This document shows, in pieces, positions 9,784-46,345 of a stretch of DNA of 64,000 nt (position 1 is the first letter of the stretch; every line of letters begins with the position of its first letter). A model generated the notes under the pieces. It did not search any database. It was not told the DNA's origin and saw only the letters and a program-made list of their open reading frames with translations. The DNA is from a bacterium (GTDB lineage: Bacteria > Patescibacteriota > Saccharimonadia > Saccharimonadales > UBA4665), in the NCBI GenBank assembly GCA_021811625.1, contig JAJZNU010000008.1, positions 331-64,330 of the forward strand. Direction: 5' to 3'. Both the position numbers and the translations under genes were made by a program.

Positions 9784-9875
9784 GAAGCAAATTGTATCTG
9801 TTTTACGGTGAAAAGTCAAAGCAAAAAACTATATTTTGCTATAATGTAGCTTGGACCCAAAAAATAAAAAATAAA

Positions 9876-11252
9876 ATGCGTCAAAAAAACGGTCGAGTCG
9901 TTAAGTATCTAAAGACTTCGGTATATCTATTATCGATAGCGATTATCGCTGTGCCGAGTGTCTTGACGCCGAGTGTTGGTCTGGCAGCCAGCGGACAAAT
10001 CTACCTTGCTCCGGCGACAGACTCAATACAAATCGGCAATACTTTTACCCTGGCATTAAGAATTAACCCTGGTACAGCAGTGAATGCCGTTCAAGCAACG
10101 GTGTCTTACGACCAAAACGCCTTGGAATTCATCTCGTCATCGATAGGAGTTTTTTCGACTTGTGTGAGTAATAGTGGGGGCGGCGGGAGCGTCACCCTGG
10201 CGTGTGCGATGCTTGGAACCAGCACTTCCAGCGATTCGCTGATTGACAACATAACCTTCAAAGCTCTGAGCGGCAGCGGAAATACGACCTTAAATCTTAT
10301 TAACGCTAACGCCTCTAATGCTGGGTCCTGGACAAACCCGAGCAGCAGCGGGGCCACCATAGATTTAACCTCACCACCCCCGCCGCCGCCATCGAATCCT
10401 GCGCCCGTCGCAACATCAACGCCTTCCAAAACAATAACTCATATATCCGCTCCAGTGACATCAACCTCGTCCGGAGGAACAGTAACTCCTCCGCCTGCTC
10501 CAGTCGTCGTGCCCGAGGCGCCCACCAACGTTAAACTCAATGTCGTCAGTCAAAATGTCAACTATACAAACGCGACCATAGCCATCAAAGCGACGGCAAG
10601 TGTCCAGCTATCACTAAAATACGGTCTATCGCCACAAACACTCGACAAAACTGCTCCGTTAACCGTAACCGGTCAGACGGCTCAACTTAATTTCGGATCG
10701 CTATCTCTAACGCCCGGTACGACGTACTACTATCAAGTGGTAGCCAGTTTTAACGGGTCAACCCTAACCGCTACTCCGGTGAGGACAATAACTACGAAGG
10801 GCTACACCGTGCAAGTAACCGTTTTGGATAGCAATTATCTTCCTTTAGTTGACAAGAAGGTTAGTCTCCACTCGGCGGCGCCAATCTATGCCTATACCAA
10901 TGCAGAAGGTGTAGCAACTTTTTCTAACGTGGCTCCGGGTTCGCATGAGCTCGATTACACATCAGGCGACCATTCTTATGTAAAAGGGGTCTATGTCCCC
11001 GACAATCTTACCGTCATACATGGGTCTGAGGTGGCGCCGATCCAGTCATCGGCTGTTGTGCTATCGGGCTACCGCCAGCCATCGTTTCGGTCTAGTTGGA
11101 CTTATTCAATAATACTAGCTATGGTGGCGGCCTTATGTGGCGGGTTGTTTACTTACTACAGGAAAGCTTTCCGGCGATTATTCGCGTTCATGTGGCGAAA
11201 GATTAAACGACATAGAGGGGTATTGCCGATAATCAACCGTCCTATTGGCTAA
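9876..11252 (+). CDS. Membrane-anchored surface protein: signal peptide, cohesin-like domain, Pro-rich linker, FN3-like domain, CarboxypepD_reg-like domain, C-terminal TM anchor
   Basis: The start is at ATG 9876 (MRQKNG...). The cohesin-like stretch is IYLAPATDSIQIGNTFTLALRINPGTAVNAVQATVSYDQNALEFISS, followed by a PPPPPPSNPAP linker. PGTTYYYQVV marks the FN3-like domain and VTVLDSNYLPLVDKKVSLHS...NAEGVATFSNVAPGSHEL the CarboxypepD_reg-like domain. The C-terminal TM (WTYSIILAMVAALCGGLFTYY) is followed by a basic tail. Confidence 0.7.
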   Translation: MRQKNGRVVKYLKTSVYLLSIAIIAVPSVLTPSVGLAASGQIYLAPATDSIQIGNTFTLALRINPGTAVNAVQATVSYDQNALEFISSSIGVFSTCVSNSGGGGSVTLACAMLGTSTSSDSLIDNITFKALSGSGNTTLNLINANASNAGSWTNPSSSGATIDLTSPPPPPPSNPAPVATSTPSKTITHISAPVTSTSSGGTVTPPPAPVVVPEAPTNVKLNVVSQNVNYTNATIAIKATASVQLSLKYGLSPQTLDKTAPLTVTGQTAQLNFGSLSLTPGTTYYYQVVASFNGSTLTATPVRTITTKGYTVQVTVLDSNYLPLVDKKVSLHSAAPIYAYTNAEGVATFSNVAPGSHELDYTSGDHSYVKGVYVPDNLTVIHGSEVAPIQSSAVVLSGYRQPSFRSSWTYSIILAMVAALCGGLFTYYRKAFRRLFAFMWRKIKRHRGVLPIINRPIG

Positions 11253-11302: not shown

Positions 11303-13084
11303 TTATTCACTTCCGTAGGCCTGTGCCAAAAGACTCAAGTCCAACAGATTAACGCAACCATCCTGATTTATGTCAGCACGACCCACCGATGGTGAGCATT
11401 GGCCGTAAGATGCTGCTAGCAGACTAAGGTCCAGCAAATCGATATGACCGTCCTCGTTAATATCCGCCGGGTAGGCCGTAAACGCCGAGACGGCAATCGA
11501 CGGCAAAGACGTGTTCCCGCTGGAATCATAGGCAACAACCTGATAATCATATGAGGTATTGGGAATTAGCGACCCATCCGTATAGGTTGTTGTAGAGGTT
11601 GTTGCAATCTGAGTGCCGTCCCGATAGACCATATATCCGCTAGGATTCCCGCTACCGGCTATCCAGCTAAGTTGGATGCTATTTTGGTTAATAGTCTTAG
11701 CGACAACGTCATTTGGCTGCGAGGGCAGGGAGATGAGGCCGGATAGTCCATTCGGGGATCCCAATCCGCTTGGAGTATCAAAGCCTATCGAGGCCGTACA
11801 GTGTGTGGTGTTAAGACTGGTACAGTCGTTGCCGGAAGTTATATCATGGAAAGCCGTCGAACTATATTTAGCGTATGGTACGGATGACCCGATAACCGAT
11901 GGGGGTATACCGCCGGAGAGCGCAAACATTCCGGCTATCAAAGGGGTTGCTAGAGATGTCCCGCCGATTTGATACCAAGTACCGTTTACATTTATCGCCG
12001 CCCCGGTGTTAGGATCTGCATCGGCTGACAGATCACCAAAAGATCGGTTGGCACCACATCCGTTAGAGGCCCAATCGCTTAGCGAGGTTTGCCAGGTAGG
12101 AGCTGGATAGTACGTCGAACAGCCGCCGCCAGAATCGACCCAAACCGTCTCATTCCCCCAGCTATTGTTCACTCCAAGCTGGAGAGTTGTGCCTGCTACC
12201 GAGACTACGTCCGGGTTGTCGCTTGGCCAAGAGGCTCCGTTCGACACCGAGCCCAGATCACCGGTGGCGGCAACAACCGCGATGCCGGGATAATCGAAAT
12301 AATTATCCAACGAAGGGTCGTCGGTATTTCCTCCCCAACTGTTGGATATCGATACCGGTTTAAGAGAAGCGGCTTCAGACTCAGCCGCAGCTAAGTCGGT
12401 GTCGACAGTATCATTTGCCTCCACTAGTGCTATCTTACAGGTCTGGCATACCATGTGAGCAGTTTCAACATCAAGCGCAATCTCGTTGCTCCAGCCGGCA
12501 TTAGCGGGAAGGGGAGAGGTAGCGCCATTTTGGTTGATGACGCTCAGACAGGAGTTGGCTATCGAACAAGTTGGAATGCCGTAGTAGGTATCATAATCAG
12601 CGAGCGACGTCTCGAGTGCGGAGTTCCCGCCTGTAAAACTTCCAGCGTCGACAATGGCAATTGTTTCCGGCCCGAAGGAAGTTGGCGTGGGACAGATCGA
12701 GGCAATAGTTCCACCCGGTGTGCAAGGCAGAGAATAGGCGGTATGGAACTCAGCGGGGCCGTAACTACCGGCATTGGCGGGACTGGCGGTTAAAGGTTGG
12801 TTTCCGTCCGGCATCATACTTATGTCCGACAGACAGCTAACGTTATTAACTGTCGGTGCCCGGCAAACACTCCGAATTGGTCGTGAAGACAGAGGTTGAA
12901 GTGCGCTAGCCCCGAAGCTTATGTGATAAGCAACAGAGTGCATCGTACTACCGTCTCCGGGAGGAGAAGACATCACAAAAAAGACAAAAAGCATTCCCAG
13001 AATAACGGCGTCACCACAGGCGATATATAGCCACTTTCGTCTGTGGGGGCGACAACGATTACTCGATTTGTAAATAATGAACAT
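11303..13084 (-). CDS. Secreted S53 (sedolisin/kumamolisin-type) serine peptidase with FN3 domain and C-terminal type-I dockerin
   Basis: There is an N-terminal signal anchor. S53 hallmarks are NEIALDVETAH (Glu, then Asp four residues later), ISNSWGG and IGGTSLATPLIAGMFAL. The FN3 domain is IQLSWIAGSGNPSGYMVYRDG...NTSYDYQVVAYD. Two EF-hand-like dockerin repeats are DINEDGHIDLLDLSLLAASYG and DINQDGCVNLLDLSLLAQAYG. Confidence 0.8.
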   Translation of the reverse strand: MFIIYKSSNRCRPHRRKWLYIACGDAVILGMLFVFFVMSSPPGDGSTMHSVAYHISFGASALQPLSSRPIRSVCRAPTVNNVSCLSDISMMPDGNQPLTASPANAGSYGPAEFHTAYSLPCTPGGTIASICPTPTSFGPETIAIVDAGSFTGGNSALETSLADYDTYYGIPTCSIANSCLSVINQNGATSPLPANAGWSNEIALDVETAHMVCQTCKIALVEANDTVDTDLAAAESEAASLKPVSISNSWGGNTDDPSLDNYFDYPGIAVVAATGDLGSVSNGASWPSDNPDVVSVAGTTLQLGVNNSWGNETVWVDSGGGCSTYYPAPTWQTSLSDWASNGCGANRSFGDLSADADPNTGAAINVNGTWYQIGGTSLATPLIAGMFALSGGIPPSVIGSSVPYAKYSSTAFHDITSGNDCTSLNTTHCTASIGFDTPSGLGSPNGLSGLISLPSQPNDVVAKTINQNSIQLSWIAGSGNPSGYMVYRDGTQIATTSTTTYTDGSLIPNTSYDYQVVAYDSSGNTSLPSIAVSAFTAYPADINEDGHIDLLDLSLLAASYGQCSPSVGRADINQDGCVNLLDLSLLAQAYGSE

Positions 13085-17308: not shown

Positions 17309-19021
17309 ATGAGGTTGTCAAAATTATTGGGGCGTACGAGTAAAACCGAAGGAGCGGATTATAAAATTGCATCACATCGTCTTCTAACGCAGGCGGGATT
17401 TATTCGCGAGTCCACGGCTGGCCGATATTACTTGTTACCTCTGGGTGTAATGGTTCAGGAAAAAATTATTGGCATAGTTAGGAAACACATGAACAATGCA
17501 GGTGCTCAAGAAGTCCTGATGCCCGTGCTGCATCCCATTGAGCTTTGGCAGGAGACCAATCGGACCAATACGACGGGCTTCGAACTAATGAAGGTTAAAG
17601 ACCGCCGGGAGGCTGAATTTGCTCTGGGGGGGACAGCCGAGGAAATGGCGGTAGATTTGGTTCGCAAATTTAATATTAGCTATAAGGATCTACCGTTTAA
17701 TATCTATCAGTTCAGCATGAAATTTCGCGATGAACTCAGGGCGCGGGGCGGATTGCTGCGAGTGAGAGAGTTCATTATGAAGGACGCCTACAGTTTCAGT
17801 ACTGAGGAGCAGTTTGCCGAGTTATATAAGCAGATGTGGGGAGTGTATGATGAGATTTTCCGCGAGGTAGGACTGAAAGTCCAGGCAGTTGCTGCGGATA
17901 ATGGCTATATCGGGGGCGAGTACTGTCATGAATTCATTGCCGAAAGTCCCGCGGGTGAAAGCACCTATTTTGTGACTGAGGATGGAAGCTACGGGGCCCA
18001 TCAAGATATAGCCGTTTTCGCCAAGTACAAAGCACCGACTGATGACGAGAAAGAATTACCCCTAGAGGAAGTCGAAGGGGCGGGTATCATAGGAGTTAGT
18101 GAATTAGCTAAGCACCTCAACATTCCTGTAGAAAAAACGACCAAGACGATTTTGTTTGAAACCGACAAGGGAGAGGTCATTGCTGCTGCCGTCAACGGTC
18201 TTTATGATGTTAATTTGGTAAAACTGCAACACATTATAGGTGCGGCCGATATAAAACTGGCCAGTCCGGAGACGGTCAAACGGGTTACCGGAGCAGATGT
18301 TGGGTATGCCGGCTTTCTAAACTTGCCCTCTGATATTCGAGTCGTTTTGGACGAGTCGGTAGGCGGTCGCAAGAACTTCGAGGTTGGCGCCAATAAAACC
18401 AACTATCATACGATCAACGTAAATTTCGGTCGCGACTATCCAGAGCCGGACCGATATTGGGATATTGCAATGGCCAAGGAAGGTTATTCGGCTGTAGACG
18501 GTCAGCAAAAGCTGATCGAGAAAAAAGGGATCGAGGTAGGTAACATCTTTCAACTAGGCTATCACTATAGCAACCTTATGAGAGACACGGAGTACACCGA
18601 TGAGCAGGGCAGGCGCCAAAAGTATTACATGGGTTGTTATGGCATTGGTATAGGCAGGACATTGGCGGCAACGGTGGAGGTGCATCATGACGACAAAGGT
18701 ATCATTTGGCCGGAGAGCATTGCACCGGCACTCGTTTATCTGGTGCGACTTGGAGATGGTAGTGACGTAATTGCCAAATCCGACGAACTGTATAAAAAAC
18801 TACAGGAGAATGGGGTTGAGGTGTTGTATGATGACCGAGACTTACGTGCTGGAGAAAAATTTGCGGACGCCGATTTGATAGGGGTACCTTACCGTTTAGT
18901 TGTTAGCAAGAACACTCTAATGAACGGAGAATATGAGCTAAAGAAACGGGACGAAGCAGAGGTGAAAAATCTATCCGAAGTCGATTTGCTAAAACTACTG
19001 GCATCCGGCAAGACGAGTTGA
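17309..19021 (+). CDS. proS: Prolyl-tRNA synthetase (bacterial type with editing insertion)
   Basis: Class II motifs (FRDELRARGGLLRVREFIMKDAYSF; GCYGIGIGR) and a C-terminal anticodon-binding domain. It is 570 aa. Confidence 0.95.
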   Translation: MRLSKLLGRTSKTEGADYKIASHRLLTQAGFIRESTAGRYYLLPLGVMVQEKIIGIVRKHMNNAGAQEVLMPVLHPIELWQETNRTNTTGFELMKVKDRREAEFALGGTAEEMAVDLVRKFNISYKDLPFNIYQFSMKFRDELRARGGLLRVREFIMKDAYSFSTEEQFAELYKQMWGVYDEIFREVGLKVQAVAADNGYIGGEYCHEFIAESPAGESTYFVTEDGSYGAHQDIAVFAKYKAPTDDEKELPLEEVEGAGIIGVSELAKHLNIPVEKTTKTILFETDKGEVIAAAVNGLYDVNLVKLQHIIGAADIKLASPETVKRVTGADVGYAGFLNLPSDIRVVLDESVGGRKNFEVGANKTNYHTINVNFGRDYPEPDRYWDIAMAKEGYSAVDGQQKLIEKKGIEVGNIFQLGYHYSNLMRDTEYTDEQGRRQKYYMGCYGIGIGRTLAATVEVHHDDKGIIWPESIAPALVYLVRLGDGSDVIAKSDELYKKLQENGVEVLYDDRDLRAGEKFADADLIGVPYRLVVSKNTLMNGEYELKKRDEAEVKNLSEVDLLKLLASGKTS

Positions 19022-19092
19022 TATAATGAGTCCTCAATTATCGGTGTTTTTCTATACAACATAACCAACGGGTCGGGAAGGAGATATTGCCA

Positions 19093-19554
19093 GTGAAAAA
19101 ATTATTCAGATTGACCAAAGATGGCATCAATGAATTGCAGTCCGAACTCAAGACACTGCTGCAGGAGCGTAAGGCGATCTCTGAACGCATCAAAATAGCT
19201 CGGGAATTCGGGGATATGGCCGAAAATGCCGAATATCAGTCGGCGCGCCATGAGCAGGACAGAAATGAGTCTCGGATAGATGAGATCGAGCACATTTTAC
19301 AGAATGTCGAGATTATCAAATCACCCAGAAATGACGGAAAAGTCCGTCTGGGTTCGGTGGTTAAGCTCAAGAACGGTAATGGTACAGCCAAGGAATATCA
19401 GGTGGTTGGTACCGTTGAGGCAGATCCGCTAAGTGGCAAAATCTCCGACGAATCGCCTATCGGACAAGCTCTGCTTGGCAAAAAAACGGGCGACGAGCTG
19501 GAAATTGTAACTTCCACCGAAAAGCTCACCTATAAGATCACGGCAATATCCTAA
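19093..19554 (+). CDS. greA: Transcription elongation factor GreA
   Basis: GDMAENAEYQSARHEQ coiled-coil tip and a C-terminal FKBP-like domain (ISDESPIGQALLGKKTGDE). GTG 19093 is preferred, being 9 nt after AAGGAG (19078-19083). The ORF track instead starts at TTG 19087. Confidence 0.92.
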   Translation: MKKLFRLTKDGINELQSELKTLLQERKAISERIKIAREFGDMAENAEYQSARHEQDRNESRIDEIEHILQNVEIIKSPRNDGKVRLGSVVKLKNGNGTAKEYQVVGTVEADPLSGKISDESPIGQALLGKKTGDELEIVTSTEKLTYKITAIS

Positions 19555-19604
19555 GAGGTGAATTGCTGGTGCTAACCGGCAAAATCAGCTAAGCTATCTA
19601 GTAT

Positions 19605-21137
19605 ATGCAGTGGTTAAATACCATCGCCGACGAGCTGATCAAACTTCACCCGTCTGGCGACATTATCGTATCGTCAGGCGTATCGCCATCGGGTACTTAT
19701 CATTTGGGGACCTTAAGGGAAGTGCTGACGGCGGAGGTGATTGCCATAGAACTCCGGAGGCGGGGAAGAGTTGCCAGGCACCTACACATTGTTGACGATC
19801 TCGACGTATTTCGGAAGGTCCCGGCTAACGTCTCCGATGAGTACACTCATTATCTGGGCCGACCGCTCTGCGATATCCCGGCCCCGGACGGTAGCGGACG
19901 ATCATACGCCGACTACTTTCTAAGTGACTTATTGATAGCTATCGATAAAATGAAACTTAGTGTCGAAATAGTTCGGGCGAATGAGAAATATCGTCAGGGT
20001 TTTTTCGTTCCAGCTATTGAAAAGTCGCTGGAGAAAGTGCAAGACATCCGAAAAATTCTTGAAACCGTTTCTGGTCGTCAGCTTGATGATCAATGGTCGC
20101 CGGTTCAAGTTCTGGAGGATGGTTACTTAAAAAACCGAGAGTTCGTAAGTATCGATCTTCAGAATAAGACCATAGAATATATAGGTAAGGACGATCAACC
20201 CTCCACGGTCAGTTACGCTCACGGAGAAGTTAAACTGAACTGGCGGATCGACTGGCCGGCGAGGTGGTGGCTTCTTGGTGTCAATGCCGAACCGTTTGGG
20301 CGTGATCATGCCACCAAGGGAGGGTCATACGACACCGGCGAGATAATAGCACGAAAAGTTTTCGACGTCACACCGCCGTTGCCGATACCCTACAATTTTA
20401 TAAACCGTGTGGGTGAGACGAAGAAAATGAGTAAAAGCGCCGGTAATGTTATAACCGCCGCCGCTTTATTAGACATAATGCCGGTGGAGATAATATGGTT
20501 CTTTATCTTGAGATTTCCGCCAGATAAGCAATTGTTTTTTGGTGAAGGGGAGACACTTCTTCGCCTATTCGATGAATTTTCAGCGCTCCTCTCCAAGCCG
20601 GACAAGTCAGAGGGAGAGAAACAGTTGCTTGAGCTCTGTCTGAATAAGGTAGCGCAGCCAACAGTAAGTCAGGTGCCTTTCTCGCATCTCGTAGCCAGCT
20701 ATCAGGCGGCGCTTAAAGATCCGGTAAAAACGTTGGCGGTGATTGCTCGGACAGAATACTCAGCAGTGGTTGCCAATGAGCCCGCGACTATCACTGCAGA
20801 GCTCAAGTTCATTGATATGTGGCTAAAAACATGGGCTCCTGAGCAGATTAAGTTTGATTTAGCGCCATCCTTTGATGAAAAACAATTTAGTGATTCTGAG
20901 AAAGATTTTTTGCAGAAACTCGGAGACAAGATTGACGACGCACCAGCAGATGCCGATGGCGATTGGTTTCATCGAGCTATTTATGAATTTAAAGATCAAG
21001 GACAGACTAACCCAAAGGAAATGTTCTCAGCTCTTTACAGACTCCTTATCGGGCAGTCGTCTGGTCCTCGGGCAGGGTGGTTTTTGAGCATTCTACCTAG
21101 GGATTGGCTAGTAAACCGACTGCACTTTAAGGGATAA
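19605..21137 (+). CDS. lysK: Class I lysyl-tRNA synthetase (archaeal/spirochaete type)
   Basis: SGVSPSGTYHLGTLREV (HIGH-like), DVFRKVP and KKMSKSAGN (KMSKS). The length and order match class I LysRS, not the OB-fold class II enzyme. Confidence 0.88.
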   Translation: MQWLNTIADELIKLHPSGDIIVSSGVSPSGTYHLGTLREVLTAEVIAIELRRRGRVARHLHIVDDLDVFRKVPANVSDEYTHYLGRPLCDIPAPDGSGRSYADYFLSDLLIAIDKMKLSVEIVRANEKYRQGFFVPAIEKSLEKVQDIRKILETVSGRQLDDQWSPVQVLEDGYLKNREFVSIDLQNKTIEYIGKDDQPSTVSYAHGEVKLNWRIDWPARWWLLGVNAEPFGRDHATKGGSYDTGEIIARKVFDVTPPLPIPYNFINRVGETKKMSKSAGNVITAAALLDIMPVEIIWFFILRFPPDKQLFFGEGETLLRLFDEFSALLSKPDKSEGEKQLLELCLNKVAQPTVSQVPFSHLVASYQAALKDPVKTLAVIARTEYSAVVANEPATITAELKFIDMWLKTWAPEQIKFDLAPSFDEKQFSDSEKDFLQKLGDKIDDAPADADGDWFHRAIYEFKDQGQTNPKEMFSALYRLLIGQSSGPRAGWFLSILPRDWLVNRLHFKG

Positions 21138-21150
21138 AGAATAAAATAAG

Positions 21151-21603
21151 ATGAAAACAATCGTGCTGTGCTCCAGCGCCTCTTTTTACAAGCACCTCAA
21201 TGAGATTGCCGACGAGTTGGGAAAAATGGGATACAAAGCAGTAGTTCCTTTAAATGCCCGGCGTATGCGTCTTAGCGGCAATTATGACACGAAAATTTAC
21301 AAAACATGGTATGAAAACCCCGACGATTTTAGTCGTAAGGCGAGGTTTATCAGAGAACATTTCCGTAAGATTACATCCGGCGACATAATTTTAGTTATTA
21401 ACGATGAGAAGAATGGCATGGCTGGTTACATAGGTGCCAATGGCTTAATGGAAATGGGTCTAGCATTTCATTTACATAAGCCCATATATGTTCTTAATGA
21501 CGTTGATAAAAAATTGCCGTTTTACGAAGAAGTTTATGGTATGGGTTCGGTTATTTTACACGGTGACCTCGGCAAAATCGGTAGTCACAAGAAGATCAAC
21601 TGA
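21151..21603 (+). CDS. Nucleoside 2-deoxyribosyltransferase-like protein
   Basis: A Rossmann-like 150-aa protein (MKTIVLCSSASFY...). GANGLMEMGLAFHLHKPIYVL resembles the NDT motif carrying the nucleophilic Glu. Family assignment is by eye only. Confidence 0.5.
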   Translation: MKTIVLCSSASFYKHLNEIADELGKMGYKAVVPLNARRMRLSGNYDTKIYKTWYENPDDFSRKARFIREHFRKITSGDIILVINDEKNGMAGYIGANGLMEMGLAFHLHKPIYVLNDVDKKLPFYEEVYGMGSVILHGDLGKIGSHKKIN

Positions 21604-21624
21604 ACTATATGCTATAGTAAGGCG

Positions 21625-22431
21625 GTGGTAGTGGCTAATAAAAAAGTTGGAAAATCTGTTGATGCCTTTAAACTGCTTAACAGATGGAATTTTGCACTAG
21701 CGGGCCTCCATTTTATACAGGGGGTGCTTATCCTTGTGCTGAGCACTACGCGCACTTTCCCGGTGACAGTTAATTATCTGACGGCCGATCCGCTTCAAAC
21801 AAAAGCTGCCGGTCACACGGTGCTAGCCTTGGCCACTCGACACATTTTTGACATTAATTTAGCCTATTTGGTGGCAGCTACGTTCTTTTTGTCGGCAATT
21901 GCTCACATAGTTTCAGCTACGGTTTATAGGCCGGTTTATGAACAAAATCTCGACCATGGTATGAATAAACTAAGGTGGGTAGAATACAGTCTAAGCGCCA
22001 GTCTGATGATGCTATCAATCGGTCTGCTGGTAGGAGTGGGGGATTTTGCCACGCTACTGACCTTGTTCGGGCTGACGGCTATCATGAATTTGCTTGGATT
22101 AGCGATGGAGGTTTACAACCGTGGCAAGCAATCCGCGAACTGGTTAGCGTACTGGATAGGAGTTCTGGCGGGTGTTGTTCCGTGGGTGGTAATTGCGATT
22201 TATCTTGTTGCCGGCGGGATATACGGTAACCGAGCTCCGGGTTTCGTGTATGGAATTTTTGCTAGTTTGCTTATTTTATTCAGTAGTTTTGCGGTCAATA
22301 TGTACTTGCAATATCGTCGTGTCGGCAAGTGGAAAAACTATTTATACGGTGAACGGGTTTATATGCTATTAAGCCTCATTGCCAAAACGGCATTGGCATG
22401 GCAGATTTTTGCCGGTACCCTTCGCCCTTAA
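21625..22431 (+). CDS. Heliorhodopsin (7-TM retinal protein)
   Basis: It has seven hydrophobic helices. The signature blocks are LRWVEYSLSASLMM (Glu120 counterion) and PGFVYGIFASLLILFSSFAVNMYLQYRRVGKWKNYLYGERVYMLLSLIAKTALAWQIFAGTLRP (Lys254, AAA at 22384-22386). These are near-collinear with my recollection of heliorhodopsin 48C12: FRWVEYSLSSS... and PGFVYGII...YLQYKGKGKWSNYLRGERAYIVLSLVAKSALAWQIFSGTLIP. His29 (LHFIQ) and His94 (AHIVS) match the two conserved HeR histidines. Confidence 0.85.
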   Translation: MVVANKKVGKSVDAFKLLNRWNFALAGLHFIQGVLILVLSTTRTFPVTVNYLTADPLQTKAAGHTVLALATRHIFDINLAYLVAATFFLSAIAHIVSATVYRPVYEQNLDHGMNKLRWVEYSLSASLMMLSIGLLVGVGDFATLLTLFGLTAIMNLLGLAMEVYNRGKQSANWLAYWIGVLAGVVPWVVIAIYLVAGGIYGNRAPGFVYGIFASLLILFSSFAVNMYLQYRRVGKWKNYLYGERVYMLLSLIAKTALAWQIFAGTLRP

Positions 22432-22438
22432 AGAACTT

Positions 22439-23059
22439 ATGGCAAATGTAATCTTTGATTTTGATGGGACAATAGCCGACAGCATTAAGGCGTTTGTTGA
22501 AATACTCGGCAGTTTGATAAACCGACCAATTCCTGACGATACCGAAATCGATAGATTGCGCTCTCTGCCTCTGCTGTCGATCATGCGTGAGCTTAAAATA
22601 CCACTATGGAAGGTGCCTCGTCTTATCAAGAAAGCACGCAAATTATATCCAAAACATATTGAGGAGATTCAGCCGCATCAAGGTATGCCCCAAGTGGTTC
22701 GAGAACTACATTCCGCCGGGCATAGACTATGGATTATGAGTACCAATTCGCCGGTAAGCATCAAGCATTTTTTGTCAACCAATGGGATAGATAAATATTT
22801 CATCCAGATCTACGGTAACGTCGGTGTATTTTCTAAGTCTAGAGCGCTCAGGAAAGTGCTCAGGCAAAACAAACTAAACCCTGAAGACAGCTATTATATC
22901 GGTGATGAGGGTCGAGACATTGAAGCCTCGTACGATAACGGCGTAAAAAGTATTGCCGTCACCTGGGGTTTTGCGGGTACGAAGTTGCTCAGGGAATTAA
23001 AACCTTACGGCTTGGCCAGCGATAGTTCTGATATAACTAAAATAATCGATCAAGCATAA
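22439..23059 (+). CDS. HAD-superfamily phosphatase (phosphoglycolate-phosphatase-like)
   Basis: FDFDGTIADS (DxDGT), IMSTNS (motif II) and YYIGDEGRDIEA (motif IV). The start is at ATG 22439, 7 nt after the heliorhodopsin stop. Confidence 0.85.
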   Translation: MANVIFDFDGTIADSIKAFVEILGSLINRPIPDDTEIDRLRSLPLLSIMRELKIPLWKVPRLIKKARKLYPKHIEEIQPHQGMPQVVRELHSAGHRLWIMSTNSPVSIKHFLSTNGIDKYFIQIYGNVGVFSKSRALRKVLRQNKLNPEDSYYIGDEGRDIEASYDNGVKSIAVTWGFAGTKLLRELKPYGLASDSSDITKIIDQA

Positions 23060-23076
23060 CTGGTAAAATATTTAGA

Positions 23077-23880
23077 ATGGCAAATTATACAAATAATCGA
23101 AATGGACCATACCGTCCGGGTCAGAAGGAAACATTTAACATATCTCGCAGTAAAATCGAGCTCTATATGCAATGTCAACGGTGCTTTTGGTTAGACGCCA
23201 GGTTAAAAATCACTCGGCCCTCTGGCCCTCCGTTTAATATAAACAAGACCATCGACGAATTATTTAAAAAAGAATTCGATAAACATCGGGCCGCTGGGAC
23301 TCCGCATCCGTTAATGATCGACAACAAAATTGATGCTGTGCCGTTTGCGCACCAGGAACTAGATGACTGGCGGTATACCTTTACCGGGGTCTCGACGCTT
23401 CACAAGCCAACTAATTTTCATGTTTACGGCGCGATTGACGATGTCTGGATAAACAGTGCCGGCGAGCTTATTGTGGTGGATTACAAAGCCACTTCCAAAG
23501 CTAAGGAGGTGGATATCAGCTCAGACTGGCAGATAAGCTATAAGCGTCAAATGGAGGTCTACCAATGGCTGCTTAGGGAGAACGGGTTTTCAGTTAGTAA
23601 AACCGGTTACTTTGTGTATACCAATGCACGTCTCGACGTCGAAGAATTTGGTGATAAATTGGAATTCAAAACAAAATTAATACCCTACGACGGAGATGAC
23701 TCTTGGATAGAAGACACGCTCACAAATATGAAAAAATGCTTGGAGGGCGATATTCCGGCAGTTGGAACGGCGGCGATGGGCGGGGCTTGCGAGTTTTGCT
23801 CATACGCCAAGGCTCGAACTGAACTTACCCTAAAATCTTTAGGGGGCAAAGCAACTGCTAAGCGTCCAAAAACGATTTAG
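23077..23880 (+). CDS. PD-(D/E)XK nuclease superfamily protein with Cas4/AddB-like Cys pairs
   Basis: GAIDDVWINSAGELIVVDYKATSK (D...D/ExK core). An N-terminal CQRC and a C-terminal CEFC suggest an Fe-S or Zn cluster. Confidence 0.65.
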   Translation: MANYTNNRNGPYRPGQKETFNISRSKIELYMQCQRCFWLDARLKITRPSGPPFNINKTIDELFKKEFDKHRAAGTPHPLMIDNKIDAVPFAHQELDDWRYTFTGVSTLHKPTNFHVYGAIDDVWINSAGELIVVDYKATSKAKEVDISSDWQISYKRQMEVYQWLLRENGFSVSKTGYFVYTNARLDVEEFGDKLEFKTKLIPYDGDDSWIEDTLTNMKKCLEGDIPAVGTAAMGGACEFCSYAKARTELTLKSLGGKATAKRPKTI

Positions 23881-23949
23881 CCCAGTAAAACTGAACAGAT
23901 CGAAGTTTCTACCTTACGGCAAAAATCGTTATAATGGATAGTCAGAAAT

Positions 23950-25269
23950 ATGTTAGATATCCAATTCATACGAGACAACCCCGAACTTGTTGTTGAGAAA
24001 AGCCGTCAGAAAGGTTACGTAGTCGATATTGAGGAGTTATTGGCTCTTGACCGGGAGCTTCGGGAGAGGCTGCCGAAGCTCGATGAACTGTATCATCAGC
24101 GAAACGAGTGGGCTGCCAAGTTTAAGAGCCAAAAACCGACGAGCGAAGAAATAGAGGCGGGGAAGAAGTTAAAAGAGAACATTAAAGACGCTACCGAAAG
24201 ATATGGTCAGTACGAACGAAACATAGATACCGTTAAAAAACGTTTCGACCAGTTATTGAAATCCGTACCGAATATGCCCATAGACGATGTACCGGTCGGT
24301 ACGAGTGAAGAGCAGAATGTTGTAGCCAAGACGGTCGGCGAGCCCAAAAAATTTGATTTCGGTCCCAAGAACCACTGGGAACTAACAGTAGCCGAAGCGC
24401 TCATCGACAAGCAAAGAGCGGCAAAAGTTGCCGGCAGTCGATTTACGTATTTGAAGGGCGACCTGGTGTTGATGCAATTTGCCCTTGTCCAATTTGCCCT
24501 GCAAACCTTAACAGATACTGTGGTAGTAGAGAAGCTCATAAAGGACAATCAACTAAATCTTGTCCCTAAACCATTTACTCCTGTTCTCCCGCCTGCTCTG
24601 GTCAACACCAAAGCCTATATGGCGACCACGCGGTTGGATGCCGAAAACGTCACCTACAAACTGGCCGACGATGAGCTTTGGCTAAACGCCAGCGCTGAAC
24701 ATAGCCTCTGCAATATGTATATGGATGAAATCGTTTCGGAGTCTGAATTGCCGATTCGTTACTTGGGATATGCCACGTCATTCCGTCGTGAAGCCGGCAC
24801 GTATGGCAAAGATACCGAGGGAACCATTCGTATGCACCAGTTTGATAAGCTGGAAATGGAGGTATTCAGTACACCGGAAACTGGACTTGAAGAGCATAAA
24901 TTATTAATTGCCGTTCAAGAGCATTTAATGGAGAGCTTGGGGCTGCCATACCAGGTGCTGCAAAAGTGTACAGCCGACATTGGTAAACCCAATGCCCGAG
25001 GGGTAGATATCGAGGTCTATTTCCCGGGGCAAAGTAAGTACCGCGAAACCCACACTGCCGATTATATGACTGATTATCAGGCGCGATCGTTACAAACTCG
25101 ACTGCGTAGGACGGATAACCGCGTTGAGCTGGTCCATACCAATGATGCTACAGCCTTAGCTTTTCCGCGTTTAATTGCCGCAATACTCGAGAATTACCAG
25201 ACGAAAGACGGGCATGTTGTTATTCCGGAAGCATTAAGACCGTTTATGGCGGGTCGTAGCATAATTTAA
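23950..25269 (+). CDS. serS: Seryl-tRNA synthetase
   Basis: N-terminal coiled-coil arm and class II motifs (FRREAGTYGKDTEGTIRMHQFDKLEM; TNDATALAFPRLIAAILENYQ). Confidence 0.95.
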   Translation: MLDIQFIRDNPELVVEKSRQKGYVVDIEELLALDRELRERLPKLDELYHQRNEWAAKFKSQKPTSEEIEAGKKLKENIKDATERYGQYERNIDTVKKRFDQLLKSVPNMPIDDVPVGTSEEQNVVAKTVGEPKKFDFGPKNHWELTVAEALIDKQRAAKVAGSRFTYLKGDLVLMQFALVQFALQTLTDTVVVEKLIKDNQLNLVPKPFTPVLPPALVNTKAYMATTRLDAENVTYKLADDELWLNASAEHSLCNMYMDEIVSESELPIRYLGYATSFRREAGTYGKDTEGTIRMHQFDKLEMEVFSTPETGLEEHKLLIAVQEHLMESLGLPYQVLQKCTADIGKPNARGVDIEVYFPGQSKYRETHTADYMTDYQARSLQTRLRRTDNRVELVHTNDATALAFPRLIAAILENYQTKDGHVVIPEALRPFMAGRSII

Positions 25270-25318
25270 GTACGCGAGCTACGTTTAGTTAGCTAGGCGA
25301 AGTTAACAAGGAGGGAAT

Positions 25319-25693
25319 ATGATTAAGCGACTGGAGTTAACCTGGCTGCACGAGTCAAGCGAGAAATCTATAGAAAAATATGTGCAAGCAAAAATAGGCC
25401 AGCTCGATCGTTATGTACCTCGGCGAGACCGACAAGCCGTTCACGCCAAAGTCACACTTAAGAAGTCTAAGGCCCAAGACAAACGTCAATACGGCTGCGA
25501 GGTTATCCTCACTCTGCCGCGCGGTAGAGTATTGAAAGTGGACGAAGCTTCACTTAATACCTATGCCGCGATAGATATATCCGAGGCCAAATTAAAGCAC
25601 CAGTTATTAAAGTACAAAGAACTATACGGTACCCCGAAATTCCATCGTAGAGTCCTTGCGAGATTTAGACGGTCTCCGGTTGACGGCAAATAG
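25319..25693 (+). CDS. hpf: Ribosome hibernation factor (short HPF/RaiA, S30AE family)
   Basis: SD AAGGAGGG. The beta-alpha-beta-beta-beta-alpha pattern carries IEKYVQAKIGQLDRY...EVILTLPRG...DEASLNTYAAIDISEAKLKHQLLKYKE. Confidence 0.78.
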   Translation: MIKRLELTWLHESSEKSIEKYVQAKIGQLDRYVPRRDRQAVHAKVTLKKSKAQDKRQYGCEVILTLPRGRVLKVDEASLNTYAAIDISEAKLKHQLLKYKELYGTPKFHRRVLARFRRSPVDGK

Positions 25694-25773
25694 CGTTAAA
25701 CTGTTTAAATTTAGCTCTGTAACTAGTACAATTACTAGGATAGATTCTAAGATGAAGGAGACTGTTAACTTTC

Positions 25774-28386
25774 GTGGCTAAGTTTAATTTTAAGAAAATG
25801 CTGGGTGACCCCCAAGCTAAGACATTAAAGCGCATCCGCAAACAGGTTAAAGTTATTAATGATCTGGCGGACAAGTATAAGAAAATGTCCGACAACAAAC
25901 TTCGTGAGCAAAGCGAAGTCTTGAGGAAGCGTCTAGGTGATGAATCAGTCGACAAGATTCTACCCGATACCTTTGCTTTGGTTAGAGAGGCGGCGACCCG
26001 TACTCTAAAACAAAGGCACTACGATGTTCAGCTAATAGGAGGAATCGTTCTTCACGAAGGCAGAGTGGCAGAGATGAAAACAGGAGAGGGGAAAACTCTG
26101 GTGGCTACTCTACCGGTCGTGCTAAACGCTTTAAGCGGTAAAGGGGTTCATGTTGTAACGGTTAACGAATACCTTGCTCAGAGAGATGCCGGGTGGATGG
26201 GGCAAGTATACGATTTTCTTGGCCTGAGCGTCGGTGTAATAATCACAGAAAAATCATTTATTTACGACAAGGAGTTTGTTAATAAGAACCACAGCGATGT
26301 CCGTTTCCAGCATCTCAAACCGTGCACGCGCCAAGAAGCTTATGCTGCCGATATCACATATGGTATAAATAACGAATTCGGTTTCGATTACCTGCGCGAC
26401 AATATGGTACGAGAAATGGATCAGCTCCGTCAGCGTAAATTACACTACGCCATTGTCGACGAAGTGGACTCAATTTTGATTGACGAGGCTCGTACGCCAC
26501 TGATTATTTCGGCTCCGTCAGTTACTACCGGCAATGCTTATGCCCAGTTCGCGAAGGTGGTACGACAATTAACTCCCGAACATTACGAGACTGATGAGAA
26601 GCGAAAAACTGTTGTATTAACTGACGAAGGCGTGGAGAAAATTGAGAAAATACTGGGAATCAGCAATCTGTATGCAACCGAAAATATCCGTACAATATAT
26701 CACCTAGAGCAAGCGCTGAGAGCTCAGACACTTTTCCATCGCGATAAAGAGTATGTGGTAACCAAAGAAGGTGAAATAATTATCGTAGATGAGTTCACTG
26801 GGCGTCTGCTGCCGGGACGAAGGTATAATGAGGGGCTTCACCAGGCCATCGAAGCCAAGGAGAACGTTGAAGTCCAGCAAGAGTCTATGACTCTGGCCAC
26901 TATTTCCTTCCAGAATTACTTTAGGCTATACGAGAAATTAGCCGGGATGACCGGTACGGCCGTAACCGAAGCCGAAGAATTTCATCAAATATACAAGCTT
27001 GACGTGGTCGAGATTCCTCCCAACCGCCACATAGTTCGTACTGATCGCAGTGATCGGATATACAAAACTGAAGCCGGTAAATTCCGGGCGATCGTCAGGG
27101 AAGTCAACTTGCTTCATACCAAAGGTCAGCCGGTACTACTAGGAACGGTCTCTATCGAGAAGAATGAATTACTCAGTAAATTATTAACGAATGCAGGTAT
27201 ACCTCACAAAGTTCTCAACGCTAAAAACAATGAAGGTGAGGCAACCATCGTCGCCAAAGCTGGTGAGAAGGGGGCGGTTACTCTGGCGACCAATATTGCT
27301 GGAAGAGGTACGGATATAGTATTAGGCGAAGGTGTTACTGATCTTGGCGGGTTATTTGTCTTAGGAAGCGAGCGTCACGAGTCGCGTCGTATCGACAACC
27401 AGCTACGTGGAAGAGCCGGTAGACAGGGTGATCCAGGTACAACCCAATTCTTTGTTAGTACCGAAGACGATTTGATGCGGGTGTTTGGCGGGGAGAGAAT
27501 AGCTTCGTTGATGGACCGGCTGAAAGTTGACGAAGATACTCCGATTGAAAATCGCCTGATTTCTAAATCGATCGAAGGAGCCCAGAAGAAAGTCGAAGGT
27601 TTCCATTTTGATCAACGAAAAAGTGTCGTCCAGTACGACGACGTAATGAATCGACACCGCAAAGCCACCTATACGATGCGACGTGAGATTTTAGAAGCGG
27701 TTGATATCAAGAAAAGGGTAGTTATTTTCATCGAAGAAGAGGCTAAAGCGCTGGCGGCCTCGCCTCAACTCACATCTGACGAGTTCGAGGATATACTAAA
27801 GGCGACTTTCCCCTTCGACGAGCAAACACTTGACCGGTTGTTTGATACGGAATCGGATAAATTCGAAGCAGTTCTGCTCACCGAAGCCAAGGAATATTAT
27901 GATGCCCGGGAGGCCGCCTTTACCCCTGAAATCATGCGCAAGGTCGAGAGAGACGTATATCTTCAGATACTTGATGAGCTCTGGATGCAGCACCTTGAGA
28001 ACATGGAGCATCTGAGAAATGGTATACACTGGATGAGTGTCGGACAGCGCGACCCACTAGTCGAGTATCGTCGACAAGGTCAACTGCTATTCGAGGAGAT
28101 GCAAGAAACTTTAAGGCACAGTGTGGTCCGGGCTCTACTTAGTGCCGAACCAGTGCCTGCCGAGGATCTGGAGCGTCCCGTTGAAACTGAGCTCACGCGG
28201 GCTGCGCGGCAATCAATCAGCAATGCCGGTCAGATCGTGGACGAAGAGAAGGAGTTTGAAGAAACCGACTTCAAGGCTTCAATTCCGTCGGCGGATAACA
28301 TCGTTAAAAAACAAACTGACCATAACCGCAAAAAGGCTCATAAAGCTGAGCGTCAGCGAAAAGCTAAGGCACGAAAACGTCGGTAG
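25774..28386 (+). CDS. secA: Preprotein translocase ATPase SecA
   Basis: MKTGEGKTLVATLP (Walker A), DEVDSILIDEARTPLIIS, TNIAGRGTDI and ESRRIDNQLRGRAGRQGDPG. It is 870 aa and has no C-terminal zinc finger. Confidence 0.97.
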   Translation: MAKFNFKKMLGDPQAKTLKRIRKQVKVINDLADKYKKMSDNKLREQSEVLRKRLGDESVDKILPDTFALVREAATRTLKQRHYDVQLIGGIVLHEGRVAEMKTGEGKTLVATLPVVLNALSGKGVHVVTVNEYLAQRDAGWMGQVYDFLGLSVGVIITEKSFIYDKEFVNKNHSDVRFQHLKPCTRQEAYAADITYGINNEFGFDYLRDNMVREMDQLRQRKLHYAIVDEVDSILIDEARTPLIISAPSVTTGNAYAQFAKVVRQLTPEHYETDEKRKTVVLTDEGVEKIEKILGISNLYATENIRTIYHLEQALRAQTLFHRDKEYVVTKEGEIIIVDEFTGRLLPGRRYNEGLHQAIEAKENVEVQQESMTLATISFQNYFRLYEKLAGMTGTAVTEAEEFHQIYKLDVVEIPPNRHIVRTDRSDRIYKTEAGKFRAIVREVNLLHTKGQPVLLGTVSIEKNELLSKLLTNAGIPHKVLNAKNNEGEATIVAKAGEKGAVTLATNIAGRGTDIVLGEGVTDLGGLFVLGSERHESRRIDNQLRGRAGRQGDPGTTQFFVSTEDDLMRVFGGERIASLMDRLKVDEDTPIENRLISKSIEGAQKKVEGFHFDQRKSVVQYDDVMNRHRKATYTMRREILEAVDIKKRVVIFIEEEAKALAASPQLTSDEFEDILKATFPFDEQTLDRLFDTESDKFEAVLLTEAKEYYDAREAAFTPEIMRKVERDVYLQILDELWMQHLENMEHLRNGIHWMSVGQRDPLVEYRRQGQLLFEEMQETLRHSVVRALLSAEPVPAEDLERPVETELTRAARQSISNAGQIVDEEKEFEETDFKASIPSADNIVKKQTDHNRKKAHKAERQRKAKARKRR

Positions 28387-39401: not shown

Positions 39402-39842
39402 ATGGATCCTCAATCTCAGACACCCGCTCCACAGGCCTCGCCCCCACCTAGTTTCACCGTTCCGGTACACAAAAAACGGATACTTATGGTCGAGGATGAT
39501 GAGGCGTTAGCCAGCGTTTATTTAACCAGGCTTGAAGCTGAAGGTTTCGAAGTCCGAAGGGTAAACAACGGTGAAGACGCCTTGGCTACCGCAGAGGAGT
39601 ACCGACCTGATTTAGTGCTGCTCGATGTAATGATGCCGAAAGTCAACGGCTTCGATGTGTTGGATATTTTGCGCAATACCCCCGAAACGGCGAATATGAA
39701 GATAATAATCCTTACAGCCTTGAGTCAAGAGAGCGATAAAGCTAGAGCCGAGGCCTTGGGAGCTGATGATTACCTGGTCAAATCACAGGTCGTAATTACC
39801 GATGTGGTTAATCGCATTAGACACCACCTCGGAATGCAATAA
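39402..39842 (+). CDS. Stand-alone response-regulator receiver (CheY-like), canonical phospho-acceptor
   Basis: ILMVEDDE, DLVLLDVMMPKVNG (Asp75), IIILTA and DDYLVKS. A Pro-rich 25-aa N-terminal extension is present, with no output domain. Confidence 0.88.
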   Translation: MDPQSQTPAPQASPPPSFTVPVHKKRILMVEDDEALASVYLTRLEAEGFEVRRVNNGEDALATAEEYRPDLVLLDVMMPKVNGFDVLDILRNTPETANMKIIILTALSQESDKARAEALGADDYLVKSQVVITDVVNRIRHHLGMQ

Positions 39843-45895: not shown

Positions 45896-46345
45896 ATGAA
45901 AAGGATTCTACTGGTCGAACCGGATAAAATATTAGCTCAAGTTTACAAGGCGTCGTTAAAGCGGGCTGGCTACGAAGTGACCCAGGTATCCGGAGCCCAG
46001 GAAGCAATAATCTCGGCCAATGATTTCCATCCTGATATCGTGGTGCTAGAGTTGAAACTTGTTGGCCATAACGGTGTCGAATTTCTATACGAGTTTAGAT
46101 CCTATCCTGACTGGCAAGAAATACCGGTAATCATTAATAGCCTGATTCACCCCCGGGAATTCGCCAGTAGTGCAATACTCTGGCGGGAGATTAAAGTTGC
46201 CGGATATCTGTATAAACCCCAATCTTCCTTAAAACAGCTCAGTTCGGCCATTCGTTTCATATTGGACAAAGAAGCTCAGAGTAGCGTTCCGGCAAGTCTC
46301 AAACGTATCGAAAACTTTTATACAGCAAGGGACTTTGGGTTTTGA
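45896..46345 (+). CDS. Receiver-domain-like protein with Glu at the phospho-acceptor position (atypical/pseudo-receiver)
   Basis: RILLVEPD replaces the usual DD pair. DIVVLELKLVGHNG has Glu52 (GAG 46049-46051) where Asp57(CheY) would be. PVIINS (Thr/Ser) and YLYKP (Lys-Pro) are retained. It starts 3 nt after the kinase-like gene. Confidence 0.68.
   Translation: MKRILLVEPDKILAQVYKASLKRAGYEVTQVSGAQEAIISANDFHPDIVVLELKLVGHNGVEFLYEFRSYPDWQEIPVIINSLIHPREFASSAILWREIKVAGYLYKPQSSLKQLSSAIRFILDKEAQSSVPASLKRIENFYTARDFGF

Follow-up and report, generated by a model that had tools for sequence, protein, structure and literature searches.

In this work, we describe a heliorhodopsin (HeR) gene located in a 64,000-nucleotide stretch of DNA, hereafter the window, from a bacterium of the Saccharimonadales, which belong to the Candidate Phyla Radiation (CPR) (NCBI GenBank assembly GCA_021811625.1, contig JAJZNU010000008.1, positions 331 to 64,330 of the forward strand). 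The gene encodes a bona fide heliorhodopsin, in which the residues expected to hold and tune the retinal chromophore are kept. The protein would act as a slow-cycling, non-pumping light sensor, using scavenged retinal and exerting its effect through a partner protein; we assign to this reading a probability of about 0.75.

The product of the gene had been proposed to be a heliorhodopsin from inspection of the sequence, and comparison with profile and structure databases fully bears out this assignment. The protein matches the Pfam family PF18761 (Heliorhodopsin) over the whole length of the profile (positions 1-242 of 242), with a score of 290.8 bits against a cut-off of 26.7: the corresponding E-value, 9e-87, excludes a chance match. 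The NCBIfam equivalog model NF038020, "heliorhodopsin HeR", is similarly exceeded, with 290.6 bits against a cut-off of 100. No other Pfam family matches the protein even at E <= 1, nor does any other family score. All sequence matches found by phmmer in the PDB are heliorhodopsins, including the archaeal TaHeR (E = 4e-67) and 48C12, the founding actinobacterial member (E = 2.5e-52).

The predicted fold leads to the same assignment. Seven helices, with a long loop separating the first two, had been noted originally and are seen both in a hydropathy scan and in an AlphaFold2 model (62 homologues; pLDDT 90.4, pTM 0.88), where they span residues 12-39, 79-98, 115-135, 141-164, 174-199, 206-231 and 239-262. 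The AB loop is modelled as a beta-hairpin, with strands at residues 44-54 and 67-78 and pLDDT above 90, a feature typical of heliorhodopsins. When the model is compared by Foldseek with known structures, it superposes on TaHeR (6is6) with TM-scores of 0.87/0.93, a root-mean-square deviation of 1.9 A and 47% identity, and on 48C12 (6su3) with TM-scores of 0.85/0.88 and 40-41% identity. Lysines and arginines are unevenly distributed on the loops, 15 on the side of the N-terminus and 5 on the opposite one; an inverted topology, with a cytoplasmic N-terminus, is therefore predicted.

The open reading frame (ORF) contains 268 codons, with a GTG start and a TAA stop, and exists exactly as first described. 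Its initial GTG is, however, probably not the true start: the codon is overlapped by a Shine-Dalgarno-like AAGGCGG, and a second in-frame GTG is found at 21631. Because of the spacing of the AAGGCGG from this second codon, and because the JGI, ENA and NCBI gene calls all begin there (266 aa), translation probably starts at 21631, yielding a protein shorter by 2 residues. Native residue numbers would accordingly probably be 2 lower (H27, H92, E118, K252); numbers used here are counted from the GTG at 21625, as in the 268-aa version.

Residue equivalences were derived from phmmer alignments to PDB chains and from a MAFFT alignment. The retinal-binding lysine, the counterion glutamate and the two histidines pointed out in the original prediction (K254, E120, H29 and H94) are encoded by precisely the codons attributed to them (Table 1), and all four align to functional residues of 48C12 and TaHeR. 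The C-terminal string of 48C12 quoted there coincides with the PDB sequence, and the C-terminal thirds of the two proteins are indeed nearly collinear. E120 aligns to the TaHeR residue changed in the structure 7clj ("E108D mutant"), and Ser90 and Ser124, the residues expected to stabilise the counterion, align to 48C12 S76 and S111.

Kovalev et al. (PMC7049168) list, for 48C12, a conserved set made of N16, H23, S76, H80, Y92, N101, R104, W105, E107, Y108, S111, E149, Q216, Y226, E230 and S237, along with Q213. All these Schiff-base and cavity residues are kept in the window protein, the cavity positions besides those already mentioned being occupied by N22, Y105, N114, R117, W118, Y121, E162, Q229, Y239 and E243 in the MAFFT alignment. 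The only exception is Q213, replaced by Met226, a frequent variant according to the same authors (PMC7049168). The predicted Schiff-base chemistry is thus fully conserved. The same holds well beyond this single gene: K254, S250 and E120, together with the surroundings of the retinal and of the Schiff base, are strictly kept in all of the 167 sampled loci of the subfamily.

Table 1. Features of the heliorhodopsin locus and related features of the window (positions refer to the 64,000-nucleotide window; residues counted from the GTG at 21625)
Feature	Position	Strand	Basis
Heliorhodopsin (HeR) gene	21625..22431	+	ORF, Pfam, NCBIfam, PDB phmmer, AlphaFold, Foldseek
Shine-Dalgarno-like AAGGCGG	21619..21625	+	5 nt upstream of GTG 21631; direct sequence reading
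His29 (CAT), equivalent to 48C12 H23, lining the Schiff-base cavity	21709..21711	+	Alignments
Long AB loop with beta-hairpin (residues 44-78), hallmark of the HeR fold	21754..21858	+	AlphaFold model
Thr86 (ACG), at the position of 48C12 Phe72 / TaHeR Phe74	21880..21882	+	Alignments
His94, equivalent to 48C12 H80	21904..21906	+	Codon read, MAFFT alignment
Glu120 (GAA), Schiff-base counterion, equivalent to 48C12 E107 and TaHeR E108	21982..21984	+	Alignments
SLIAK of helix 7, Ser250-Lys254 (AAA 22384-22386), equivalent to 48C12 S237/K241, with the retinal-binding Lys	22372..22386	+	Alignments
150-aa ORF, nucleoside 2-deoxyribosyltransferase-like family, in the MsrA slot of relatives	21151..21603	+	Homologues, few with PF05014
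HAD_2 hydrolase, COG0546/phosphoglycolate-phosphatase-like	22439..23059	+	7 nt past HeR stop
PD-(D/E)XK (Cas4/RecB-like) nuclease, kept in relatives	23077..23880	+	17 nt after HAD
Stand-alone receiver-domain proteins, no output domain	39402-39842; 45896-46345	+	ORF scan

On the basis of characterised homologues, all-trans retinal would bind K254, with E120 as the counterion. The cell is probably unable to make retinal, which would be scavenged from a host or from the environment. Green light would then isomerise the chromophore, leading to a long-lived late intermediate with no net ion transport, and this long-lived state would modulate a partner protein, as in other heliorhodopsins. The partners reported for members of the family are glutamine synthetase, a photolyase and OmrDE, an ABC transporter (PMC11109279, PMC12873467). 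As to kinetics, a hydrogen bond between a serine in transmembrane helix 3 and an asparagine in helix 4 makes the 48C12 photocycle faster, while TaHeR, featuring Ala and Thr at these positions, is slow (PMC12873467). According to the alignment, the window protein carries Ala125 and Thr151 at the two sites and is thus of the slow TaHeR type, a marker which supports the predicted slow photocycle.

For the identity of the partner, gene order provides the best candidates: the HAD phosphatase encoded downstream of the HeR gene and, in relatives, the methionine sulfoxide reductase MsrA encoded directly upstream. Both candidates fit the published proposal that heliorhodopsins trigger defences against light-induced oxidative stress (PMC8612252, PMC9166423). 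In the window the HeR gene belongs to a same-strand string, composed, in order, of class-I LysRS, a 150-aa ORF, HeR, HAD_2, PD-(D/E)XK, SerRS, HPF and SecA. The gaps following the first four of these genes are 13 nt, 21-27 nt, 7 nt and 17 nt, respectively. A terminator scan found no terminator-like site between the genes of the string, and the outcome of promoter and terminator scans was at or below shuffle expectation. HAD and HeR are probably co-transcribed.

In the seven closest relatives located on long contigs, whose heliorhodopsins are 57-65% identical to the window protein, HAD always lies directly 3' of HeR and the PD-(D/E)XK gene is also always present; an RlmD-like gene (TRAM and U5-methyltransferase) is found downstream in six of them and MsrA directly upstream in five. 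For wider counts, a further 167 HeR loci were used, with dereplication of HeR at 70% identity. Directly downstream of HeR, HAD occurs in 10 loci out of 140 (6 of 45 clusters); MsrA lies upstream, within 1 kb and in the same orientation, in 14 of 142 (8 of 47 clusters); and a RlmD/RumA-like gene with TRAM and U5-methyltransferase domains lies within 2 kb in 14 of 93 (8 of 34 clusters). The loci with MsrA upstream belong to Saccharimonadales and to two Dehalococcoidales genomes, and those with RlmD near HeR span phyla, occurring in Bacillota/Izemoplasmatales and in Saccharimonadales. Within the Saccharimonadales clade, HAD begins 2-160 nt past the HeR stop codon, and the HAD sequences are only 36-41% identical.

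The 150-aa ORF occupies, in the window, the slot held by MsrA in relatives. No Pfam or NCBIfam family and no PDB sequence matches it. Among its homologues, which number about 150 and come mostly from Saccharimonadales, a few match PF05014 (nucleoside 2-deoxyribosyltransferase), which suggests a nucleoside-salvage enzyme. This ORF was considered as a conserved HeR partner and rejected, as it adjoins HeR in no other locus examined.

A more specific version of the partner model is that HeR and the downstream HAD form a dedicated light-regulated pair: once photoactivated, HeR would bind HAD and alter its activity, and the pair would belong, along with MsrA and the PD-(D/E)XK nuclease, to a module repairing photo-oxidative damage. 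The short gap between the two genes, with no terminator, speaks for such a pair, as does the constancy of the arrangement, since HAD follows HeR in all seven close relatives although the genes preceding HeR and those coming after HAD vary among them, and keeps its position despite a drift to 36-41% identity, compared with 57-65% for HeR. The linkage of MsrA to HeR in 8 of 47 clusters, Dehalococcoidales included, and the nature of the best NCBIfam and PDB matches of HAD, which are phosphoglycolate-phosphatase-like, also agree with it. None of the NCBIfam phosphoglycolate-phosphatase models, however, comes near its cut-off (85.6 bits against 368); the adjacency is limited to 6 of 45 clusters, all from Saccharimonadales, and in genomes as densely packed throughout as those of the CPR it is weak evidence. 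No published report of a link between HeR and HAD was found in the literature searched, nor any pairing of heliorhodopsin with methionine sulfoxide reductase, an absence which is not proof of novelty. We consider a dedicated pair unlikely.

Several of these observations, and some further ones, also weigh against the broader view of a sensor acting through a partner encoded nearby. Neither MsrA nor an RlmD-like gene is present in the 64-kb window, and the adjacency of HAD is confined to one Saccharimonadales clade. Even there the slot is variable, being taken in other members by NUDIX, RsmE or RlmD: a NUDIX hydrolase is found in two loci of the clade and an RsmE-like gene in one. Because of this variation, the adjacency of HAD may reflect inherited gene order rather than functional coupling, and inherited order can mimic functional linkage in compact genomes. 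The short gaps themselves say little, since the region from 19 to 31 kb is one packed string of housekeeping genes. The ten classes of HeR neighbours described in PMC11109279 include none of the three, HAD, MsrA or RlmD. Two points concern the chromophore rather than the partner: the absence of genes for retinal synthesis, discussed below, holds for the 64 kb only, and a substitution located beside the Schiff base, Thr86, could have an effect beyond what homology predicts. With MsrA and RlmD missing here, a variable slot, a possibly inherited order and HAD models below their cut-offs, HAD is to be regarded as a candidate partner, and not as a result.

A bolder proposal extends the same observations to several genes. 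In Saccharimonadales, and independently in some Dehalococcoidales, HeR would act as the light-operated switch of a compact module for the repair of photo-oxidative damage, made up of MsrA, HeR, the HAD phosphatase, the RlmD-like methyltransferase and the PD-(D/E)XK nuclease. HeR would directly contact co-transcribed soluble enzymes, in the window genome the HAD encoded 7 nt downstream, and Thr86 would retune the colour or the lifetime of the signal. As a whole, this proposal is speculative, and we regard it as rather improbable.

As regards the host, the nearest neighbours of ribosomal protein S2 are 71-84% identical to it, those with a name being mostly from Candidatus Saccharimonadales bacterium, and the genes near HeR are syntenic with, and 50-69% identical to, genes of contigs from Saccharibacteria metagenome-assembled genomes, including GCA_035758825.1. 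Coding density, counted over ORFs of 120 aa or more, is 90%, and nearly all genes lie on one strand. Since S2 identity, gene order and coding density all agree, the description of the host as streamlined and probably epibiotic, put forward at the outset, is a fair one. A Saccharimonadales host also fits the reported distribution of heliorhodopsins, which are found in monoderm-type organisms, CPR included (PMC8612252, PMC9166423).

The 59 ORFs of 120 aa or longer that were scanned in the 64-kb window include no crtE, crtB, crtI, crtY or blh gene, and no type-1 rhodopsin. Jaffe et al. reported that blh is absent from rhodopsin-bearing Saccharibacteria, and proposed that their retinal is derived from the host; uptake of external retinal by HeR apoproteins is rapid (PMC9296517).

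The lack of recognised retinal and carotenoid genes in the window, and the existence of Saccharibacteria with rhodopsins and no blh (PMC9296517), could also be taken to mean that HeR acts mostly or wholly without chromophore, playing a light-independent role at the membrane of a cell unable to make retinal. A retinal-free role does appear to exist somewhere in the wider family, as 74 of the 150 nearest HeR-like representatives have no Schiff-base lysine. The strict retention of K254, S250, E120 and the retinal environment, here and in the 167 of 167 sampled loci of the subfamily, argues instead for selection on chromophore binding; the rapid uptake of external retinal by HeR apoproteins also speaks against this view. 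A chromophore-free role for this protein is thus very unlikely.

The lysine-less proteins deserve a mention of their own. In these 74 representatives of HeR-family clusters, defined at 50% identity, the lysine is replaced by Q, S, A, L, T or Y; the first of them is encountered at rank 9. They still keep W259, R117, E243 and Y105, and as a set they point to the existence of many lysine-less HeR-like lineages. No description of heliorhodopsins devoid of the lysine was found in the literature searched.

Signalling through a two-component system was also considered, as Bulzu et al. described two-component genes as neighbours of HeR. No such genes are present near the window HeR: the 64 kb contain no histidine kinase, and the nearest receiver-domain gene lies 17 kb away from HeR.

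One residue close to the retinal sets the window protein apart from its relatives. Thr86 takes the place of a phenylalanine, corresponding to Phe72 in 48C12 and, when the PDB chain is corrected for its offset of 6 residues, to Phe74 in TaHeR. In the description of the surroundings of the Schiff base by Kovalev et al., a "bulky Phe72" is one of the residues listed (PMC7049168), and Lu et al. include it among the residues of transmembrane helix 2 plugging a tunnel enclosed by helices 1, 2, 3 and 7 (PMC6951262). Within the subfamily of the query, from which all the following samples were drawn, the position is practically invariant: Phe was found in 86 of 86 members of a first sample, in each of the 119 members, other than the query itself, of the 120 closest protein clusters and in 165 of 167 fetched HeR loci. 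The change from TTY to ACG involves three bases.

Thr86 was therefore initially a candidate for the break of a family invariant. This interpretation was dropped after inspection of 51 diverse representatives of 50%-identity clusters, all keeping the lysine, the glutamate and the serine: only 37 have Phe at site 86, and the others V, M, Y, A, G, I and, in one case, S. As diverse heliorhodopsins vary at this site, the claim is lowered: Thr86 is, on the sequences compared, private to this lineage, at a site where change is tolerated, and it might have an effect on colour or kinetics. The residue provides a natural Phe-to-Thr variant beside the Schiff base, which can be compared for colour and kinetics with Phe-bearing relatives.

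The same DNA was found in other collections. For the fetched stretches, window positions 18631-27431 are 100% identical to contig k141_979879 (124,487 bp) of ENA ERZ27237454, and the same identity is observed with k141_218893 of ERZ27236985 and with Ga0373184_0013421 of JGI 3300033990. The presence of identical DNA in several records shows that the sequence can be reproduced from one assembly record to another, and indicates that the same population was assembled several times. The one JGI and two ENA records include Thr86; the use of this identity as an independent confirmation of the residue was rejected, as these are not independent strains and reads may be shared.

It could be imagined that the polar Thr86 opens the hydrophobic tunnel between helices 1, 2, 3 and 7, making the protein a light-gated proton transporter or channel, similar to the viral V2HeR3. 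The replaced Phe is precisely the residue listed near the Schiff base and as a plug of the tunnel, it is kept in 119 of 119 and in 165 of 167 sampled members of the subfamily, and proton transport is known in one HeR branch (PMC12873467). A single hydroxyl is nevertheless insufficient for a pathway, the remaining residues of the tunnel being hydrophobic and the rest of the family-conserved core unchanged, and V, I, M, A, G or S are also found at this site in diverse bona fide heliorhodopsins. Furthermore, transport by V2HeR3, of a branch marked by a fast photocycle dominated by M, needs a carboxylate, E191, described as unique to its branch, and most heliorhodopsins assayed show no transport (PMC12873467). 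The closest relatives of the window protein are bacterial and archaeal, not viral. Thr86 is thus weak evidence for ion conduction, and we hold a transport function to be highly improbable.

Finally, although both families are seven-helix and retinal-binding and type-1 pumps do occur in some Saccharibacteria (PMC9296517), the chance that a type-1, SacR-like proton-pumping rhodopsin was here misread as a heliorhodopsin is negligible, such an identity being ruled out by the lack of any match to Pfam Bac_rhodopsin (PF01036) at E <= 1, by structure comparison, where type-1 structures reach TM-scores of only about 0.5-0.67 and 10-17% identity to the model against 0.87 and 47% for TaHeR, and by the charge bias, which predicts a topology opposite to the extracellular N-terminus of type-1 proteins, besides a helix 7 motif of the form SxxxK and not DxxxK.

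Among known systems, the closest solved structure is that of TaHeR (Thermoplasmatales archaeon; PDB 6is6, 7clj, 7u55). The two proteins share the counterion Glu, the SxxxK motif, both histidines and Met at the position of 48C12 Q213, as well as Ala and Thr at the kinetic positions of transmembrane helices 3 and 4. The TaHeR host, too, is without a retinal pathway, and TaHeR takes up external retinal (PMC9296517). The window protein differs from TaHeR in its CPR bacterial host, in Thr86 in place of Phe74 and in gene context, and its AB and EF loops are several residues longer, as judged from alignment gaps. With 48C12 (PDB 6su3, 6su4, 6uh3) it shares H23, H80, E107, S237 and K241, and its D140 and Y193 are the counterparts of D127 and Y179, which take part in dimer contacts; the differences are A125/T151 for Ser112/Asn138, Met226 for Q213 and Thr86 for F72.

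The heliorhodopsins for which partners are known belong to the same family, and the working model proposed for them is that a long-lived photointermediate modulates a partner encoded nearby. The neighbour classes described in PMC11109279 are glutamine and NAD+ synthetases, photolyase, MerR, TerC, ABC transporter, SDR, alpha/beta hydrolase, DUF2177 and DUF2238: none of the ten adjoins the window HeR.

The surprise implied in the original prediction, at the presence of a heliorhodopsin in a streamlined cell, is not supported. Patescibacteria are among the HeR-bearing monoderm lineages described by Bulzu et al. in 2021 (PMC8612252). In a screen of 1,326 CPR genomes, published by Chiriac et al. 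in 2022, HeRs occurred chiefly in Saccharimonadia, with 80 occurrences; the commonest helix 7 motifs in CPR proteins were SLVAK, SLIAK and SFVAK (PMC9166423), and SxxxK on helix 7 was used as the criterion for heliorhodopsins in both studies (PMC8612252, PMC9166423). A search of 5.8 billion proteins returned 2,548 relatives at E <= 1e-10. The nearest non-identical ones are 57-65% identical, and several are named by NCBI "heliorhodopsin HeR [Candidatus Saccharimonadales bacterium]"; at 90% identity the window protein forms a cluster of its own, the next cluster being 64% identical. As CPR heliorhodopsins have been published and close relatives are already named as such, novelty is reduced, and the window protein is an uncharacterised addition to the already catalogued Saccharimonadia group. 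It shares with the published members the family, the host class and the SLIAK motif, and with its Saccharimonadales relatives the downstream order HAD, PD-(D/E)XK, SerRS and HPF, while it differs from these relatives in having no MsrA or RlmD-like neighbours and in the private F-to-T change at site 86.

Other features of the window complete the picture of the host. Its housekeeping genes include ParAB, RF1, RF2, S2, L31, EF-Ts, RRF, SecA, FtsEX, CTP synthase and RecO, in addition to ProRS, class-I LysRS, SerRS, GlyRS, MraZ/RsmH, PBP, MraY, FtsW and MurG; no tRNA and no Rfam family were found in the 64 kb. The LysRS (19605-21137, + strand) is of the class I archaeal type, matching TIGR00467 lysS_arch with 354 bits. 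Two S2 homologues, 75-76% identical, are labelled in NCBI as Nevskiaceae and Verrucomicrobiae, and the contigs carrying them are probably mis-binned Saccharimonadales sequences. Elsewhere in the window, the gene of a cohesin-domain protein (9792-11252, + strand) adjoins a convergent gene (11303-13084, - strand), whose subtilase-like product contains fn3 and type I dockerin domains: in this CPR bacterium, the two could form a surface pair of the cohesin-dockerin kind.

The locus adds one sequence to a known group, and alone changes little. For heliorhodopsins in general, the partners known to date are few: glutamine synthetase, photolyase and one ABC transporter. The practical value of the locus lies in the natural Phe-to-Thr variant and in the short, testable lists of candidate partners that gene order provides, with HAD in the window and, among relatives, MsrA and RlmD. 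With its roughly one thousand genes and probably without a retinal pathway, a CPR cell offers a simple setting in which to ask with what the sensor communicates. Should HeR prove to be the light switch of a repair module, CPR heliorhodopsins, none of which has a known partner today, would gain a concrete and testable one.

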